Source: Sulfuricurvum sp.
GTDB taxonomy: Bacteria; Campylobacterota; Campylobacteria; Campylobacterales; Sulfurimonadaceae
Assembly: GCA_030696285.1 (NCBI GenBank)
Contig: JAUYSQ010000068.1
Location: 2,231-66,230, forward strand
Direction of reading: 5' to 3'
Length of the DNA stretch: 64,000 bases
Shown here: positions 5,794 through 55,489 of the stretch, piece by piece
How positions within the stretch are numbered: position 1 is the first letter of the stretch
Layout of the letters: the number at the start of each line of letters is the position of its first letter
Notes under the pieces: model-generated
Told to the model about the DNA's origin: nothing
Databases searched by the model: none
Seen by the model: only the letters and a program-made list of their open reading frames with translations
Translations under genes and position numbers: made by a program

Positions 5794-7716
5794 TTATAAA
5801 AAGACTCCACCAACAACGCAGTTTTCCTTCCCGATTGGATAGCTCACATTCATCAATGGAGGGGTTGTTTTCAAATTTCTCTGTAAACGGCTAAAAAGTG
5901 ATTGCCCGGCGAAATACGAACCGCAGAGGACAATATCCGACGCTTTGGTTTTCCCTTTGATTTCAGTAAGAAGCTCGCTGAAATAATCTCCAAACGATTC
6001 AAAGATAGAATAGCTAAGATATACTGAATCGACACCCGCTATTTTATAGCTGAGTATACTGGACAAAAAAGCGACGTGGTTAAAACGGTTATCATCCACT
6101 TTCGTATCGATTTGAAGTCCCCCTTTACCGATAAACTTCAGCGCCTCTTTCATCACCCCATCGTAACTTCGTTCTTCCAATCCCAAAATAATGGCAGTTG
6201 CTTCAAAAAGAGTGGCCTTGCTGTGTTCGAGTGCTAGAAGTTCCTCGTACACCTGTGGAAGTTTGATTTTTATATTTTCCATCAGTCTATCCGATCCCTC
6301 TCGCAAAGTCGCCATTTTTTCCAACAGTCCATTGGGGCTGAAAACATGAGGAGGGACAACCCGAATCACTTTTTTGCCATCGTAATACAAAAAGGACGGC
6401 TCACCTTGGAAATAGGCCCCGACCACTTTGGTTCCAAATTTATTGTGCTCGGCGATTACCGACATAAATGAGGCTTCATCTTCTGCCATCGTATGAAAAT
6501 TGCTCGATTGTACCGAGGGTATTTCCGTTTCTAATTGAATCACTTTGAGTGTTGAAGCAGACGTAAATCGCTCCATTTGATCAAATAAAATCCCGTTCTC
6601 ATCTTTGATCCCTACAAGACCGTGTGCAATACTTAACGTATCGGTTCCATACGATAACCGTGAGGGAAATGAGACACGTTCCCCCGAGGCGATAAACTTC
6701 ACATCTTTATTGATAAAGAGACGCATATCGCTTTGATACTGAATGTTCAGATCAAAATCCATCACAAAATCGGCTTCACACGGTGTTTCCAGCGCCTCAT
6801 AAACAATAGTATCGAGACCCAAAAGGGTGAGTTCTTTCCCCAGTAAAATCGAAAATCCCTCATCAGGGTATTTAACATCAATCGTGGAACCAAAAGTATT
6901 TCGCAATGCTTCATCTTTGAGTGCAACGTGTACTATCGGCCGTTCAATACTGAGAAGTGCGTTAAATTCATCATGTATCAACGAGCAATAATCGGTAATT
7001 TTTACCGCATTGACCAACATCAAAACGGAGTTCTTAGAGAGTTTCTCGGCACGATAAAAGAGCCGATACCCCATGGTCGTTTTCATTAACAGCGTTTTAC
7101 CGTCGCGCAACGCTTTGGCAGAGACTTCAAACATTGTTCGAAAACTCCCTGCATCATTGGCATAACGCTCTTTATCTTTATGAAGCAGTTTAACGGGGAT
7201 TGCACATTCATGACACGAATTAAGTACCTGTTTTTCACGACGCCCAACACTAAGTGATTCTTGCTCACACGTAGGACACGACTTGACATAAGAGAATGCC
7301 GTATTGCTCCGAATATAGGGGTAATGTTCAAAAAAGACGTATTGTCCCCCGCAATGGGTACAGTGGGTAAAAGGGTAATAGTAGCGTTTCGAGGAGGGAT
7401 CAAACATCTCTTTTTGACAACTCGGACACAACCCCAGCGCAATAGGATATTCAACCGCAAAATCGGGAACAGAGTCAGGTTCTCCCTCGATATCATAGTG
7501 GCTGCTTTTGCTCATGAAACACGAAGCCGGAAGGATGGAAGCAATCGTTTCCAAACACGCCTGAAGTTTTTCGTCACTGCTGTCAAACGCACAAATAATT
7601 TTAGATTTTTGTTGGTGAACAACCGCTTTAATCTCAAAGGTGCGAATAATGGCAATCAAATAATTTTTAATCGTGGGTTGAGAAAATGAGGTCATCACCT
7701 CCAACGTAAATGCCAT
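5794..7716 (-). CDS. hydE: HypF-related hydrogenase accessory protein (Campylobacterota HydE-like)
   Basis: HypF-like Zn fingers (CPSC...RYYYPFTHCTHCGG; CPTC; CHEC) without the HypF catalytic motifs; sits directly downstream of hydABC as in Wolinella/Helicobacter hyd operons. Confidence 0.7.
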   Translation of the reverse strand: MAFTLEVMTSFSQPTIKNYLIAIIRTFEIKAVVHQQKSKIICAFDSSDEKLQACLETIASILPASCFMSKSSHYDIEGEPDSVPDFAVEYPIALGLCPSCQKEMFDPSSKRYYYPFTHCTHCGGQYVFFEHYPYIRSNTAFSYVKSCPTCEQESLSVGRREKQVLNSCHECAIPVKLLHKDKERYANDAGSFRTMFEVSAKALRDGKTLLMKTTMGYRLFYRAEKLSKNSVLMLVNAVKITDYCSLIHDEFNALLSIERPIVHVALKDEALRNTFGSTIDVKYPDEGFSILLGKELTLLGLDTIVYEALETPCEADFVMDFDLNIQYQSDMRLFINKDVKFIASGERVSFPSRLSYGTDTLSIAHGLVGIKDENGILFDQMERFTSASTLKVIQLETEIPSVQSSNFHTMAEDEASFMSVIAEHNKFGTKVVGAYFQGEPSFLYYDGKKVIRVVPPHVFSPNGLLEKMATLREGSDRLMENIKIKLPQVYEELLALEHSKATLFEATAIILGLEERSYDGVMKEALKFIGKGGLQIDTKVDDNRFNHVAFLSSILSYKIAGVDSVYLSYSIFESFGDYFSELLTEIKGKTKASDIVLCGSYFAGQSLFSRLQRNLKTTPPLMNVSYPIGKENCVVGGVFL

Positions 7717-49175: not shown

Positions 49176-49655
49176 ATGCAACCGAATAATTTTTATGATA
49201 CTCTCATCATTAACACCCCAATCGGAAAAATGATCGCTGCTGCCGATGAGCATGGAATCGCCTCCCTCGATTTTATGGATGAAACAGTTGACCAAACTTC
49301 TTCTGAAAATCCTCTGTTAATCCGCTTAGAACAAGAATTAAACGAATACTTCGAGAAAAAACGGCAAACCTTCACCCTACCGCTCTCTCCGCATGGAACG
49401 GTGTTTCAAAAAGGGGTATGGGAGACCCTCCGTACCATCCCCTACGGCGAAACCGTCTCCTACGCTACAGAAGCCAAACGTTTCGGCAACCCCAAAGCCG
49501 TCCGCGCCGTCGCCAGTGCCAATGCCCGTAATCCCATTGCTATTCTCATCCCCTGCCATCGTGTCATCGCTACAGGCGGCGGGATCGGCGGATACAGCGG
49601 AGGAATTTGGAGAAAAGAGTTTTTATTAGATTTGGAAAAGATAAATCAAGCCTAA
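49176..49655 (+). CDS. ogt: Methylated-DNA--protein-cysteine methyltransferase
   Basis: GTVFQKGVW..L.TIPYGE..SY, RAVASA...NP..I.IPCHRV. Confidence 0.93.
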   Translation: MQPNNFYDTLIINTPIGKMIAAADEHGIASLDFMDETVDQTSSENPLLIRLEQELNEYFEKKRQTFTLPLSPHGTVFQKGVWETLRTIPYGETVSYATEAKRFGNPKAVRAVASANARNPIAILIPCHRVIATGGGIGGYSGGIWRKEFLLDLEKINQA

Positions 49656-50266
49656 TCTACCAACACGATTCCCATTGATTCCAGTAAAAACAATGCTTCA
49701 TAGCGGTTGAAAACAGCTCCTTTGAGATGGTTGGAGCGTACATCAATCATCGTGTTACTTGTGTCGGTAAAGTTGGCACCTTCGAGATGCGTATTGCCGA
49801 ACAACGCCCCCTTAAAATCGCTCCCGCTAAAATCGGCTTTTAGAAGTGTCGCGTTGCGAAAATCAACCTCTTTGGCTCGGCACTCTTTCATTACCATTCC
49901 CTCTATATTCAGACCAAAAAAATTGCTGTCATTGAGGATACACTCGCGAAAACGGATCGGATCGGCATTGAGTAAACTCTTCCAATCCCCCATCGTCCAA
50001 TCGATCCCGATCATCTTGCACGAGACAAACTCGACATCGCTCATTTTCGTATTGGTCAGTTTCATCAGGCTAAGATTGCAGTTTTCAAAACGGCATTCGG
50101 TAAATTTGCAGGAGGAGAAAAAAGTTTCGCTGAAATTGCAGGAGACGAAGGTGCAGTCATCGAACTCCGCTTTGGTGATCTTTTTGCCGTGCAGATCAAC
50201 GTTTTCGAATTTTTCGGCGAATACGTCCATGGTGTCGGTGATGCTCTTTTGAATACTCATCCGCAT
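49652..50266 (-). CDS. Pentapeptide repeat protein
   Basis: Periodic (A/C)xFxx repeats (CTFVS CNFSE TFFSS CKFTE CRFEN CNLSL). Confidence 0.88.
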   Translation of the reverse strand: MRMSIQKSITDTMDVFAEKFENVDLHGKKITKAEFDDCTFVSCNFSETFFSSCKFTECRFENCNLSLMKLTNTKMSDVEFVSCKMIGIDWTMGDWKSLLNADPIRFRECILNDSNFFGLNIEGMVMKECRAKEVDFRNATLLKADFSGSDFKGALFGNTHLEGANFTDTSNTMIDVRSNHLKGAVFNRYEALFLLESMGIVLVD

Positions 50267-50333
50267 ATTTTTACAATCTCTTCCATAAACCCAGTTGTTT
50301 TTTATTTATTGTGATAAGATAAATTTTGTACTT

Positions 50334-53300
50334 TTAATGTACATTCTCGGCAACTGGTCCATCATAAGTAAATCCTACATAAAAATTTATTATCTTACTT
50401 TCATCTCTTCCAATTTCAAACCCATATTTCGCCGGATTGAAGTATATCGACATTCCATTGATGTCAATAAAACCACGCTCAGGTGTCAATATTTTTTGTA
50501 TTCTACCGCTCAGTAAAGTAAGGTTCTGACGCATATTTTGAAGCTCTTTTTCTTCATCATCATCTCGAATTTTTGAATAATGAACTAACCTATTCACTCC
50601 TCCATTTTTTCCATACCATTCATATTTAAATCTACGATCTCGTCTAAATCGTGTTCTATTTTCTAGTTCACCTAGATTTAAGCGAACACTCTCAAGACTC
50701 CCAAGTGCGCCTTCCATTAAATTTACAGCGTGATATGCGTACAAATAATATATTGCATCGATAAAGTCTGTATTTACTTTCATATGTGCAATTTTTTCAA
50801 TTATACTATCCAAAGAAAATTGCGTGATGCCACTTTCACGTACTGCCCTAATCCACATCTTAATACTTTGTGTATCTCGAACATCCGAATTAACATTTTC
50901 TGTAAGTAATAAAACAATTCGTGATAAGACTTTCTGATCCAATCGCTCCCAATTACGATTATTTCGTTCTAATAATGTATGTGCAATATTACGTCGTATT
51001 ACATTTTTATTAATATTTGCTGATGGTGAATTTAACATACTATCAAATTCTTGCAATGCAATTTCAAAATTGCCATATAATCGATGCACTTGATTTCGAA
51101 GAACATAAAATTTTTCACTACGGCTATCTGCCCCATAAACTAATTCTAATTCATCAATAAGTGAACTTGCTTTATCAAAGGCATTTTCAAGAAAATTATC
51201 TTGTTTGATTCTTATATATTCAACTGTTGATTGTCCAGTAGCTCTATGAATTTTATCAAATAACTTAACATAAAGTGAAATTTCGCCTACATACGAATGT
51301 TCATCATTAGGCATATACAATCTAGCATTTTCAAATGCATCTACTGCACTCCCAGCAAGCGAAATAATCTCTTTTATACTATCCTCATTAGGTTCAATTG
51401 ACAACATATGACTATAAAATATCATTCCGTAAATATGATGTAATACATGATCATCATTTTGTAAACTTAGTGCTTCTTTAAGTGCCTCTTTTGCTCTTGG
51501 AAAATCTTTATTTAAACTCAGCATTCTTCCATAATGGGCTAGAAAATGTGGATTATTTGGATATTTTTCTGAAAGATGCTCAAGTACAATAAGCTTCCCC
51601 TCATTTACAGAAATATCTTCTAATATCTTACTAAACTTCTCATTCGACAAAGCATTTCTATCACGGTTTATGAATATTTTTGTCATTAGTTCAATCATTT
51701 TATTCGACTGTATCGGTAAATCAGAATGACAAAGATCAATAAATTCTTTTCCAATTGTTGATAGTTGTTGTTTCCATTGAGCACCAAAGAGATTTTCAAA
51801 AATCTTTTTTGCAATGGCAAAATGAATAATATAAATCTCACCATTTTTAGTCTCTACTAAATCAAGAGCAACATTTGAATCTCCACTAAATAATTTTTGA
51901 AGATCAATATTTTTTATACCAAAGTGCTTTCTGAATATTTCAATTGGAAGAGATGTTTGTCCGTAGTATTGAGCAACAGCTAAGTATAAGAAAAAATATT
52001 TCTGCGATTCAGTTAAATATAAAAATCTACTGTTAATATAATTATCTATTCCTTTATATTCGTCATCATATGCAACCAGACCAAAAAAGAATGCTGATTT
52101 TATATCATTTGATAGAACATATTTTTCTAAATCGCTTTTTTTATTTGTTAACGCTTCCGATTGATATGCAGACTTAAATGAAGCAATCTCCGGTATTGAA
52201 AGTTCTTCATAAAGATAAAAGTTAGATTTAGTACTACTCTTGTCATGTTTTACAATATCAAATTTACGAATAACTTGTAAAATAACCGAAGGATACCCTT
52301 CGGCTCTTAACTTTTCATATAAATCATCAATCTGAGTATCAGTAAATGACTCTCTATCGACAATTAATAATATACTTTTCTTTGATAAATTATATATTTG
52401 TCCAATTTTTCGATATGTACTATCTGAATTATAATTTGTTAAAAAACAAATTGGGTATTCATCTTTAAGCTCCCATGCGACTCTATGTGAAACTGTCGTG
52501 CCTCCAGCTCCTGGTTCATGATAGAGATTAGTACGGCTAACTTGCTTTTGATTCAAATACTGTTTTAGCTTATCTTGTAATTGTCTTGCAATATCTCTAT
52601 TACAATCATGATGCTGAACAATATTGTTCCACGTTATTTTATGCCCTTTTCGGTATTGAATAGCATTTTCAGCTTCTTCCTCAACAAACAGTTCTCTGTA
52701 AACAACAAATAAATCTTCAGCAAACCAATTTGCATTTTTCACAGAAATTTCGGTGTGTGTATCACCTTTTGGTATAAAATATCTTTTTGATTGGATGAAA
52801 TATTTATCAGAAAAAAGGCTATTAAGCCCATTTGAAATGGACTCGTCATCTATTACTATAATTTTACATATATCTTCATAATCTTCTGGAATATGAATGT
52901 TGCTATTTCCAATGATAACTATATGTGCACTTTGGTCAAGTAACCCGTGTAGTGATTCGACTATGTTATTAATAAATTTTTGATCATTAAATCCATAAAC
53001 AATAAAAATTCCATCTTTAGGATTTAAATCTTCTGCTATATAATTTAATTGTTCTTGAAACTGCTTATCGTGTAAGCGTTTCCATTCTTTATAAGATAAA
53101 TCTGAAGATGAAATATCTACGTCAGATTGACCATTGGCAAAAAACCAAGGTAGCGCTGGCATAGACAGTAATTTCATCGGTCTTACAAAATTATGAATAA
53201 CTCGATTTTGTTCAAACACTTCTTTAGTCTGTGCATATAAACCGTTTTGCTCGCTATCACGATTAAAATCAATTACCATATGCCAAGAGACATATCCAAG

Positions 53301-53534
53301 ATTTTTTAAGTTTATTGTTTTAGGATGATTGGTACCAGATATCAGGTAGTATTTTGCTCTTTTATAATTAAAATTATACGATGCATTTTTTAAGTTATTC
53401 CAATTGCTATTTTCTTCTAAATCTGAATTTGATTCCTCGCTTGCAGCATTACCATATACATTAGTTGTTATTATGGTTAAATTATTATGATTGCCAAGTT
53501 GTTCGGTTGTATTATTAGAGTTAATATCTGACAT
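50334..53534 (-). CDS. SAMD9/Avs9-like STAND NTPase (SIR2-like - P-loop - TPR - OB fold) with an N-terminal Asn-rich RHIM-like motif
   Basis: NLYHEPGAGGTTVSHRVAWEL (SAMD9-type Walker A as I recall it: NLYHxPGCGGTTL), ILLIVD Walker B, WHMVIDFN and PWFFANG in the SIR2-like region, TPR-like helices, terminal FYVGFTYDGPVA. AT-rich. Confidence 0.8.
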   Translation of the reverse strand: MSDINSNNTTEQLGNHNNLTIITTNVYGNAASEESNSDLEENSNWNNLKNASYNFNYKRAKYYLISGTNHPKTINLKNLGYVSWHMVIDFNRDSEQNGLYAQTKEVFEQNRVIHNFVRPMKLLSMPALPWFFANGQSDVDISSSDLSYKEWKRLHDKQFQEQLNYIAEDLNPKDGIFIVYGFNDQKFINNIVESLHGLLDQSAHIVIIGNSNIHIPEDYEDICKIIVIDDESISNGLNSLFSDKYFIQSKRYFIPKGDTHTEISVKNANWFAEDLFVVYRELFVEEEAENAIQYRKGHKITWNNIVQHHDCNRDIARQLQDKLKQYLNQKQVSRTNLYHEPGAGGTTVSHRVAWELKDEYPICFLTNYNSDSTYRKIGQIYNLSKKSILLIVDRESFTDTQIDDLYEKLRAEGYPSVILQVIRKFDIVKHDKSSTKSNFYLYEELSIPEIASFKSAYQSEALTNKKSDLEKYVLSNDIKSAFFFGLVAYDDEYKGIDNYINSRFLYLTESQKYFFLYLAVAQYYGQTSLPIEIFRKHFGIKNIDLQKLFSGDSNVALDLVETKNGEIYIIHFAIAKKIFENLFGAQWKQQLSTIGKEFIDLCHSDLPIQSNKMIELMTKIFINRDRNALSNEKFSKILEDISVNEGKLIVLEHLSEKYPNNPHFLAHYGRMLSLNKDFPRAKEALKEALSLQNDDHVLHHIYGMIFYSHMLSIEPNEDSIKEIISLAGSAVDAFENARLYMPNDEHSYVGEISLYVKLFDKIHRATGQSTVEYIRIKQDNFLENAFDKASSLIDELELVYGADSRSEKFYVLRNQVHRLYGNFEIALQEFDSMLNSPSANINKNVIRRNIAHTLLERNNRNWERLDQKVLSRIVLLLTENVNSDVRDTQSIKMWIRAVRESGITQFSLDSIIEKIAHMKVNTDFIDAIYYLYAYHAVNLMEGALGSLESVRLNLGELENRTRFRRDRRFKYEWYGKNGGVNRLVHYSKIRDDDEEKELQNMRQNLTLLSGRIQKILTPERGFIDINGMSIYFNPAKYGFEIGRDESKIINFYVGFTYDGPVAENVH

Positions 53535-53537
53535 TTC

Positions 53538-53810
53538 TTATCCAATTTTCACACGATTATTATCACCATTTTGGACAACAGTATTACCTGAATTGATATT
53601 AATTTCACCATTCTGTTTTAATTCTTCAAGCTGTTTTTGTATTTCTTTATTTACAGAAAATATCGTTTGAAGATGAGAAGAAAAATCATCTTTTTTATCT
53701 GCATTCACCAAATCTTTCAAAATTCCAAACGATCCACCAAAAATGAGTTTTACACTATCATAAAAAGCATTCCCAGCTACTGCATCCCAAGCAAAATCAA
53801 CTAAATCCAT
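53538..53810 (-). CDS. Small putative effector: helical N-terminal domain plus C-terminal RHIM-like motif
   Basis: RBS AAAGGA; ends 3 nt before the STAND gene start; C-terminus NINSGNTVVQNGDNNRVKIG. Confidence 0.75.
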   Translation of the reverse strand: MDLVDFAWDAVAGNAFYDSVKLIFGGSFGILKDLVNADKKDDFSSHLQTIFSVNKEIQKQLEELKQNGEININSGNTVVQNGDNNRVKIG

Positions 53811-53883
53811 TTATTTTCCTTTTAATCATTTAAAAAATTAATACTGAACAAGTATACAATATTTTTCCACTCTCCTCAACGCC

Positions 53884-54288
53884 TCATTCTCTACATTTTG
53901 CTTTGAGTGCCGATCCAAACTGTTCCATCATTGGATAATACGTGTGAGTTATCAATTCTTCGAGTTCATCCAAAATAGTTTCGTCATAAATTTCTAAGGC
54001 GAGGTTACGCTTTTCGAGTGCTTCAAGCCATTTGGCACCATCGGAGATCAGCCCGTAATCAAAGGCAGTTTTGATCGCTTCGCGAGGGCTTTTGACATCA
54101 TACCCCTCGGTGATGAGATAATCTTTCATCACTTTCCACGCCAACTCAAACGCCACCTCAAAAAACTGGATAAGACCCGCTTTTTCGATCTCGTTGAGAT
54201 TCTCTTTTTCGACCGTGGCACGCACGTGTGCAAGCGATTTGGTGTAATTGACCATCCGTTGTCGGCATCGAACCAATCCCTCACCCAT
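53884..54288 (-). CDS. HI0074-like nucleotidyltransferase substrate-binding (HEPN) protein; RxxxxH motif altered
   Basis: GLIQFFEVAFELAWK.MKDYL, SPREAIK.AF..GLI, RNLALEIY. Confidence 0.8.
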   Translation of the reverse strand: MGEGLVRCRQRMVNYTKSLAHVRATVEKENLNEIEKAGLIQFFEVAFELAWKVMKDYLITEGYDVKSPREAIKTAFDYGLISDGAKWLEALEKRNLALEIYDETILDELEELITHTYYPMMEQFGSALKAKCRE

Positions 54289-54531: not shown

Positions 54532-54837
54532 CTACGAAGCTTTAAGCGGCGTAATATGAAAGTGCAGCCCTAAAGATTTTACCACTTTAGCAATAGTATC
54601 AAAACGGGGTTTAGAACCGGGGGCAAATGTTTTATAGAGGCTCTCACGTCCTAATCCACTCTCTTGTGCAATTTGACTCATACCGCGAGCTTTGGCGATA
54701 TGACCGATGGCACGAATTAGCTCATCGGTATCACCCTCTTCGAGGACTTGCGTGAGGTATTCGGCAATCGCTTCTTCGCTGTCCAAATACTGCGTTAAAT
54801 CAAATGAAGTAATTTCGGTTTGCTGAATGGTATACAT
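54532..54837 (-). CDS. HI1420-like addiction-module antidote (HTH-XRE)
   Basis: FDLTQYLDSEEAIAEYL, AIGHIAKARGMSQIAQESGLGRESLYK..PRFDTI. Confidence 0.88.
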   Translation of the reverse strand: MYTIQQTEITSFDLTQYLDSEEAIAEYLTQVLEEGDTDELIRAIGHIAKARGMSQIAQESGLGRESLYKTFAPGSKPRFDTIAKVVKSLGLHFHITPLKAS

Positions 54838-54874
54838 GGACAAATTGTATCCATTTAGATACATAGTGTCAATA

Positions 54875-55153
54875 TCACGGCAAATTTTCCCGATAGAGGG
54901 TCAATATCCAAATCTGATCTTTTTCTACGGTATAGATAATCGAGTACCCCTGATAGACAAGTTTACGCGAACCGCTGATCAGCTCTTCGCAACTTCGCCC
55001 CGCATAAGGAAAAGTACTCAATGTACTTACGATAAACTCGCGCAACCGTTGCAAATACTCTCGTGTGAGCTTTTTTGACTTCGTTTGCTCATAGATGTAT
55101 TCGGCGATCATCTCTAATCGCATCTGCGCTTGGGGAGAAAAATCAATCCGCAT
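54875..55153 (-). CDS. RelE/ParE-family toxin
   Basis: IDFSPQA...L..IAEYI, L..FPYAGR, RKLVYQGYSIIY.V, IWILTL; overlaps the upstream antitoxin. Confidence 0.85.
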   Translation of the reverse strand: MRIDFSPQAQMRLEMIAEYIYEQTKSKKLTREYLQRLREFIVSTLSTFPYAGRSCEELISGSRKLVYQGYSIIYTVEKDQIWILTLYRENLP

Positions 55154-55397
55154 ATTTCGCTATCACCCGATCAAACGCTTCATCGATGCCCATGTATTCA
55201 CCGCGCTCGATTTGCTCCATCGCCTCTTTGACTTCACGCTTAAGCTGCGCATGGGTGCGGTTGTATTCATCCAGAGACATAATCACAACACTCTTGTCAT
55301 TTTTGGTCGTGACAATCACCTCTTCATTATTGTCACACACTTCATCGATAATCGTTTTGAGAGAGTTACGTGCCGTGGTATAGTTCAATGCTTGCAT
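55143..55397 (-). CDS. Phd/YefM-family antitoxin
   Basis: LNYTTARNSLK.IIDEV......VIVT......VVIMSLDEYN. Confidence 0.9.
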   Translation of the reverse strand: MQALNYTTARNSLKTIIDEVCDNNEEVIVTTKNDKSVVIMSLDEYNRTHAQLKREVKEAMEQIERGEYMGIDEAFDRVIAKYAD

Positions 55398-55489
55398 GGG
55401 TTTACCTTTGTGACAGCTTTCTGTCATTATAGCACATTTTATAAACAAAGAAGAAAATTAAATTCTAATGCATTGTACGTACTCATACA

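Follow-up and report, generated by a model that had tools for sequence, protein, structure and literature searches.

What does a SAMD9/Avs9-type sensor do once it has lost the domain with which its relatives kill? This question is raised by two adjoining genes in a 64,000-nucleotide stretch of Sulfuricurvum sp. DNA (contig JAUYSQ010000068.1; the whole stretch is called the window below). One gene encodes a 90-amino-acid (aa) protein, the putative effector, and the other a 1066-aa STAND protein, the sensor. A short motif rich in Asn and Gly, here called the tag, stands at the C-terminus of the former and at the N-terminus of the latter. Together they probably form a defence cassette of two genes, gained by horizontal transfer, whose workings resemble those of the Bell/BASS-NLR and Bab/Agp amyloid-signalling systems. 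In this cassette, the usual fused AlbA_2 nuclease appears to have been swapped for a free, disordered tag of 18-20 residues. The analysis shows the adjacency of the genes, the shared motif and its significance, the pairing of tags in related loci, the replaced domain, the SAMD9-like fold and the mobile context; ligand sensing, amyloid templating, membrane activity and phage defence are inferred.

Matched tags on neighbouring proteins

The two genes are separated by only three nucleotides, and their junction reads ...ATT GGA TAA GAA ATG TCA. The open reading frames (ORFs) confirm the layout given in an earlier note on this DNA, in which the stop of the 90-aa gene runs into the 1066-aa gene as TAA-GAA-ATG. 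The effector motif INSGNTVVQNGDNNRVKI aligns without gaps to the sensor motif INSNNTTEQLGNHNNLTI with nine identities in 18 positions. Both contain the pattern Q-x-G-x-x-N-x-h-x-h (h, hydrophobic), and both observations, made in the earlier note, are reproduced.

The likeness stands out against the rest of the genome. When the organism's own assembly of 2.39 Mb is scanned in six frames as 18-mers, 4,748,534 positions in all (background mean -19.8, standard deviation 9.4), the sensor segment is the top non-self BLOSUM62 match to the effector segment, with a score of 43 and a runner-up at 37. In a comparison of the last 30 effector residues with the first 30 sensor residues, only 0.085% of composition-preserving shuffles attain a local score as high as the real one (P = 8.5e-4). 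Searched through the whole genome, a permissive regular expression of the motif picks out these two genes and no others. Partial matches in other ORFs (C173, C19, C164) are out-of-frame artefacts and were set aside. Different codons are used at six of the nine identical residues and nucleotide identity across the motif is 31/54, indicating that the likeness is maintained in the protein sequence and does not come from a DNA repeat of recent origin. The sensor motif is also translated, since no start codon (ATG, GTG or TTG) occurs between codons 1 and 44 and relatives are homologous from residue 44 onwards. A sensor start downstream of the motif, an objection foreseen in the earlier note, would cost conserved sequence.

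The motif is rich in N, G, Q, V and I and poor in P, L and K, and both copies lie in segments predicted to be disordered in the monomer, with AlphaFold2 confidence scores (pLDDT) below 50 for the effector tail and about 30 for the start of the sensor. The length and composition of the effector tail (N7 G4 I3 V3 Q2, no P) agree with the published description of BASS motifs. Neither of the two proteins has a Pfam match to a BASS1-11 class motif.

The same arrangement recurs in related loci. The effector tail is found again at the N-terminus of the downstream gene in 11 of the 11 loci where this N-terminus is readable, which bears out the placement of one motif at both termini that the earlier note had drawn from Bell/BASS and HET-s, as well as its expectation of paired motifs in homologous gene pairs. 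An orthologous Avs9-like sensor (55% identical) is present at L002/L003, where the tags NNSYNNIYQNGNNNSVKIGS and SNSYNKINQNGNNNRIYIVS share 13 of 20 residues. Other partners are of different kinds. A second genome of the same phylum (L011, the same as G033) has an NB-ARC+TPR partner with an integrase nearby, Neisseria zalophi (L012) a TPR-only partner whose tag is identical at 14 of 18 positions, and Thiofilum flexile (L013) a 368-aa partner of no known family with 19 of 21 identical. Matching tags are also carried by an NB-ARC partner at L016/L027 and by the partner at L028, and the motif is kept on a truncated partner at L026. At L001, the motif occurs in both of the next genes, neither of them SAMD9-like, and at L025 it is borne by an nSTAND3 protein upstream and by another protein downstream. 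The genes are collinear and lie close together or overlap slightly (from -8 to +11 nucleotides across 10 related loci). Between motif classes, the best score of each tail is with its own partner. In these comparisons, which are the decisive evidence, matched terminal tags are a conserved rule of the whole family and the genomic signature of BASS/HET-s-type signalling.

Several loci have features of their own. A large tagged partner (>840 aa) without any Pfam domain, a sensor of no known family, recurs at L001 (1160-3616), L025 (5177-5788) and L028 (1019-3547). Three genes are involved at L025 (1407-5788), where the effector lies between the nSTAND3 protein and a second large protein and all have the same tag, and at L001 (131-3616), where the effector is followed by proteins of 249 aa and 819+ aa; at both, one effector may serve two sensors. 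Truncated partner genes are found at L015 (6307-7288), with an insertion sequence transposase (rve) just downstream, and at L026 (1049-3591), with reverse transcriptase and bAvd-like genes of the diversity-generating retroelement type nearby. These two look like decaying copies of the system. The tag-coding stretches at L013 (~6238-6365) are identical at 60 of 63 nucleotides, compared with 31/54 in the window and 38/54 in Neisseria, where they have diverged at synonymous sites. This pattern suggests occasional gene conversion between effector and sensor tags.

The sensor and the small-protein family

The description of the sensor as SAMD9-like, put forward in the earlier note, is supported by structure and sequence alike. 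Its AlphaFold2 model has a mean pLDDT of 84, falling to about 30 in residues 1-38, and the six best PDB matches in Foldseek are cryo-electron microscopy structures of human SAMD9 (E 6e-35 to 8e-32, the best being 9zjr at 6e-35). The EfAvs5 SIR2-STAND structure follows the SAMD9 entries, and alignments to both SAMD9 and EfAvs5 span the full length; TPR structures are also among the fold matches. A direct phmmer match to human SAMD9 chain 37ib_A (E 1.8e-4) and the Pfam domain nSTAND_NTPase5 agree with this assignment. The core of Sir2-like domain, P-loop without the Walker A Lys, TPR/helical region and OB domain is shared with Avs9 and SAMD9/SAMD9L. The P-loop reads PGAGGTT, in which the canonical Lys is missing, as it also is in SAMD9L, and H339, P341, G342, G344 and G345 are invariant across 24 homologues. 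The C-terminal region is conserved to the last residue in relatives, and SAMD9 has an OB domain at the corresponding position (PMC12680541).

The N-terminus is different. Most of the 57 sensor homologues are about 1,215 aa long and begin with an AlbA_2 domain (PF04326). Residues 44-1066 of the sensor can be aligned over their whole length with residues 175-1216 of such a bacterial relative, at 33% identity over 1,050 residues, and a Pfam scan of the sensor gives no PF04326 match. The roughly 174 nuclease residues of the relatives are thus replaced by 43 disordered residues that consist of the motif and a linker. In Avs9, killing is the work of AlbA_2 (Legrand et al. 2025, PMC12680541), and in SAMD9L the AlbA domain is the main effector and the Sir2-like domain a scaffold (bioRxiv 10.64898/2026.02.01.703102). 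Because AlbA_2 is absent here and is the killing domain of the relatives, the sensor is left without an effector in cis. It is a SAMD9/Avs9-like STAND protein that has lost this effector; where Avs9 and SAMD9/SAMD9L carry the AlbA_2 killing nuclease, it has a tagged disordered segment and a separate upstream gene.

The small protein is predicted to fold into helices at residues 3-12, 17-36, 40-53 and 55-67 (pLDDT 80-93). It has no match in Pfam, NCBIfam or PADLOC and no meaningful PDB match by sequence, profile or Foldseek. A match to a RhoGEF (E 1e-4) covers a helical stretch only and was rejected. A profile built from three close sequences retrieves 93 representative clusters, mostly of 90-115 aa, so that the protein is one of a family that has no annotation and comprises 93 or more clusters of sequences. 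A tblastn search of phage records with a family member gave no match. In an alignment of 40 members, a conserved head is followed by tails of several unrelated Gly/Asn-rich classes. Within it, K21 and F43 never vary and F6, G14, Y17, D18, L47 and L64 hardly do, and the head contains Asp2 and a conserved G-x-x-Y-D.

Two further observations concern the tails. The motif occurs twice in several members (L011, 8494-8829, minus strand; L026, 714-1049; P0136; P0118), for example as NDSFKRLENSGIDA ... TNSFKDNVNSPIKI, and the partner has a single copy; the HET-s prion domain and NWD2 show the same two-versus-one arrangement. The Pfam family PF20701 (HetE-N) matches the last helices and a 'Q-x-H-x-G-x-G-D-N' tail in 13 of the 40 aligned members (P0092, P0093 and 11 others), and this Pfam entry may contain an unrecognised signalling motif.

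Genomic setting of the cassette

The gene pair occupies a stretch of markedly lower guanine-cytosine (GC) content than its flanks (Table 1), and same-genus genomes, which lack the cassette, show empty sites. In two of them (G415, G411) the flanking pentapeptide-repeat gene directly adjoins a ParE/Phd module, and in a third (G410) it adjoins a HepT-MNT pair. The content of the toxin-antitoxin islet also differs among same-genus genomes. The small-protein family is found in two of 401 sampled genomes of the phylum, and at related loci Gabija-like OLD+UvrD genes are found nearby, as are numerous toxin-antitoxin genes. No att-like flanking repeats were found at the cassette ends. From its sequence setting, the pair seems to be a horizontally acquired cassette in a mobile, island-like context, and this context fits a defence island. 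Promoter-like sites are no commoner than in shuffled sequence, and the scan for promoters and terminators is uninformative in such AT-rich DNA.

The HepT-like gene next to the cassette has a counterpart in G410 (locus L023), where it is followed by an MNT nucleotidyltransferase gene and a gene for a 162-aa membrane protein. The window cassette stands where G410 has these two genes, and the last ~13 residues of the HepT-like protein differ. The HepT-like gene of the window may be an orphaned or disabled toxin.

Table 1. Features of the gene pair and its surroundings, in window coordinates.
Feature	Position	Strand	Basis or remark
Low-GC cassette, this gene pair only, ~3.7 kb	50244..53922		28-34% GC vs 42-47% in flanks, sharp bounds
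Small putative effector gene, 90 aa	53538..53810	minus	ORF and AGGA ribosome-binding site
Small-protein parts: predicted four-helix head (residues 1-67), disordered Asn/Gly-rich tail (68-90)	53538..53810	minus	AlphaFold2
Effector-side motif INSGNTVVQNGDNNRVKI, residues 72-89	53544..53597	minus	
Junction: TAA stop and GAA spacer, both ORFs in the same frame	53535..53540	minus	
Sensor gene, 1066 aa, SAMD9/Avs9-like STAND without AlbA_2 effector domain	50334..53534	minus	
Sensor-side motif INSNNTTEQLGNHNNLTI, residues 4-21	53472..53525	minus	
Ser/Glu/Asn-rich linker from motif to conserved core, residues 22-43	53406..53471	minus	disordered in model
Sir2-like alpha/beta domain, residues 44-280	52695..53405	minus	weak PADLOC SIR2 match 151-251; model fold; Foldseek
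P-loop NTPase, Pfam nSTAND_NTPase5 (PF25199), residues 293-426	52257..52658	minus	E 3.6e-11
Helical/TPR region, presumed ligand-sensing, residues 447-960	50655..52196	minus	weak TPR matches 650-702; all-helical model
C-terminal beta-rich OB-like domain, residues 972-1063	50346..50621	minus	model strands 1008-1063
Candidate promoter TTGAGG-17-TATACT, 41 nucleotides 5' of small gene	53851..53879	minus	consensus scan only
Pentapeptide-repeat protein	49652-50266	minus	directly downstream of cassette, kept in all same-genus genomes, edge of variable spot
Lone HepT-like / HI0074-type 'NTase substrate-binding' toxin gene	53884-54288	minus	
HigA-like antitoxin	54532-54864	minus	toxin-antitoxin islet beside cassette
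ParE/RelE-like toxin	54875-55153	minus	toxin-antitoxin islet beside cassette
Phd/YefM-like antitoxin	55143-55448	minus	toxin-antitoxin islet beside cassette

Known systems, proposed mechanism and alternatives

Amyloid signalling in a unicellular bacterium has been described for Bab/Agp (BASS11) of E. coli ECOR25, in which a 20-residue tag of the 109-aa 'Babybell' and of a TPR-GreAB-PIN sensor forms amyloid, the pair protects against T5 by abortive infection, and residues D2, G11, Y14 and D15 of Bab are essential (Ibarlosa et al., bioRxiv 10.1101/2024.11.07.622273). The statement in the earlier note that such systems occur mainly in filamentous organisms and with NACHT/NB-ARC sensors is outdated by this example. 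The window pair resembles Bab/Agp in its small protein (~100 aa), which is all helical and ends in a tag of about 20 aa, in the adjoining TPR sensor of about 1,100 aa with the same tag at its N-terminus, and in its unicellular host and defence-island context. Asp2 and G-x-x-Y-D are spaced like the essential Bab residues, a suggestive likeness that compares published positions only. The two systems differ in the sensor, which is a SAMD9/Avs9-type STAND NTPase here and of TPR-GreA/B-C-PIN type in Agp, in the head (four predicted helices in 67 aa here, five in ~80 aa in Bab) and in the tag, which lacks the I-G-S-V...Q...D-N pattern. Bab itself was not recognised among the 93 inspected profile matches, of which no 109-aa member has its published residues.

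Bell/BASS1-10-NLR pairs were described in filamentous bacteria and archaea by Dyrka et al. (2020, bioRxiv 10.1101/2020.01.06.895854). The Bell/Babybell effector domain is small and all-alpha, with a hydrophobic N-terminal helix around which the other helices form a cup. They too consist of collinear genes no more than 10 bp apart with matched tags rich in G, N, Q, V and I; likewise, the effector is helical and has an acidic residue at position 2 or 3, and pseudo-repeats occur in some family members. Reports of them come almost exclusively from Actinobacteria, Cyanobacteria, Chloroflexi and Methanosarcinales that are multicellular, whereas the present family is found in Campylobacterota-type genomes, Neisseria and Thiofilum and has partners of several other kinds. 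HET-S/NWD2 of Podospora anserina follows the same logic, in that a motif at the N-terminus of an NLR serves as the template for one at the C-terminus of a helical pore-former encoded next to it. It belongs to another kingdom and differs in its HRAM motif, its HeLo domain of ~220 aa and its NACHT-WD sensor.

The known motifs compared with the tag include the RHIM of RIPK1/RIPK3 and BASS3. The earlier note had named the motif RHIM-like, and the effector copy VQNGDNNRV is indeed close to the RIPK3 core quoted there. This label does not hold. Neither protein has a match to the RHIM family (PF12721) in hmmscan at E<=1, and the RHIM tetrad (I/V)-Q-(I/V/L/C)-G is found neither in the effector (VQNG) nor in the sensor (EQLG) nor in the L001 copies (NVSG, AILG, NAEG). 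Its central hydrophobic residue is an N in the effector, and the Q is absent from all three L001 copies.

By analogy with these systems, the C-terminal half of the sensor would detect a phage-derived ligand, and nucleotide-dependent oligomerisation would then cluster the N-terminal tags. Clustered tags could adopt a cooperative cross-beta fold that templates the matching C-terminal tag of the 90-aa protein. This step would release or reorganise the four-helix head, whose Gly-rich N-terminal helices may attack the membrane, so that the infected cell dies.

Several points weigh against this reading. In the Pfam and PDB searches, the small protein shows no recognisable likeness in sequence or fold to Bell, HeLo or any PDB entry, and neither gene is modelled as part of a system in PADLOC. 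Its N-terminal helices are not transmembrane-like by hydropathy. The N-terminal helix is moderately hydrophobic, with a maximum 19-residue Kyte-Doolittle mean of 0.98, and the 'killing helix' of the earlier note is accordingly kept here as a conjectural label. Within the window's own motif class the scores cross-react, and the effector tail scores 52 against the L002 and L001 sensors and 44 against its own, so that fine-scale co-variation is not demonstrated. The Sir2-like domain could itself be active. Finally, the amyloid state of the tags is one that we infer.

The physical state of the tags is the point on which a docking model departs from amyloid signalling. In such a model the tag common to both proteins acts as a homotypic docking peptide and brings the small effector to the oligomerised sensor, for instance through zippering of beta-strands into a small hetero-oligomeric sheet or solenoid, and no self-propagating templating takes place. 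A conserved matched tag does not by itself reveal its physical state, the tags are short (~18 residues), and some tag classes resemble hexapeptide or beta-helix repeats. All tested systems with the same layout and tag composition (HET-S/NWD2, BASS1, BASS3, BASS11) nevertheless form amyloids or prions, and some family members have two effector pseudo-repeats against one in the sensor, like HET-s. We regard docking alone as unlikely. A different division of labour, in which the small protein regulates the sensor, binding it through the tag as a cap, a chaperone or an inhibitor of antitoxin type, and the sensor kills alone, for instance with its Sir2-like domain, is quite improbable. The domain is retained in the sensor, and SIR2 is the NADase effector in the related Avs5 (PMC11897194), but residues 44-280 contain no invariant His or Asn across the 24 homologues, and the corresponding domain of SAMD9L is a scaffold. 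The family also pairs with Sir2-free partners (NB-ARC-TPR, TPR-only and unknown), which a portable effector fits better.

Simpler explanations of the tags themselves fare worse against the comparative data. The two window ORFs share a frame with only TAA-GAA between them, and readthrough of the in-frame stop or decay of a former fusion would make them a single gene. The stop is a TAA, however, the sensor has its own ATG, and the in-frame placement is not conserved: the frame offset is 1 or 2, or the genes overlap, at the orthologous loci L001 and L002 and at six further ones. This variation of the offset among related loci led us to reject the single-gene explanation, which is extremely improbable. 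Nor is there much left of the idea that the likeness arose by chance between two Asn-rich, low-complexity ends in a cassette of ~30% GC. Set against it are the first rank in the genome-wide scan, the shuffle result and the pairing in all 11 independent loci, which have different motif classes; chance is effectively refuted by these comparisons, and its probability is negligible.

The amyloid-signalling reading can be extended to the family as a whole, in a form whose chances of being right or wrong we judge to be even. In this form, a sensor of the Avs9/SAMD9 lineage would have given up the tRNase-type nuclease fused to it in exchange for a membrane effector that acts in trans and is templated by amyloid. 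This effector would belong to a widespread, unannotated 'mini-Bell' family with a 67-aa head and at least four unrelated tag classes, serving in unicellular Proteobacteria and Campylobacterota as a portable death module for sensors of many kinds, namely SAMD9-like, NB-ARC, nSTAND3, NTPase-free TPR and unknown ones.

To our knowledge, bacterial amyloid signalling has so far comprised one functional example, Bab/Agp, and a bioinformatic Bell/NLR set from filamentous phyla. The signalling principle is known. The literature searched contains no report of a SAMD9/Avs9-type sensor as a tag-bearing partner, and none of this mini effector family with its several tag classes, diverse partners and unicellular lineages. 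What is new is the SAMD9/Avs9-type tagged partner, the tag in place of the nuclease of the lineage, and the unannotated family of mini effectors.

Human members of the SAMD9/Avs9 lineage are antiviral factors and disease genes. The cassette points to a cis nuclease in this lineage that is exchangeable for a tag-coupled effector in trans, a natural 'split' version that allows sensing to be separated from killing. The effector family is small enough to synthesise and is missed by current Pfam, PADLOC and NCBIfam models, so that defence-system finders would overlook such cassettes. With several matched tag classes on one conserved head, it offers a ready panel for the study of amyloid cross-seeding specificity.

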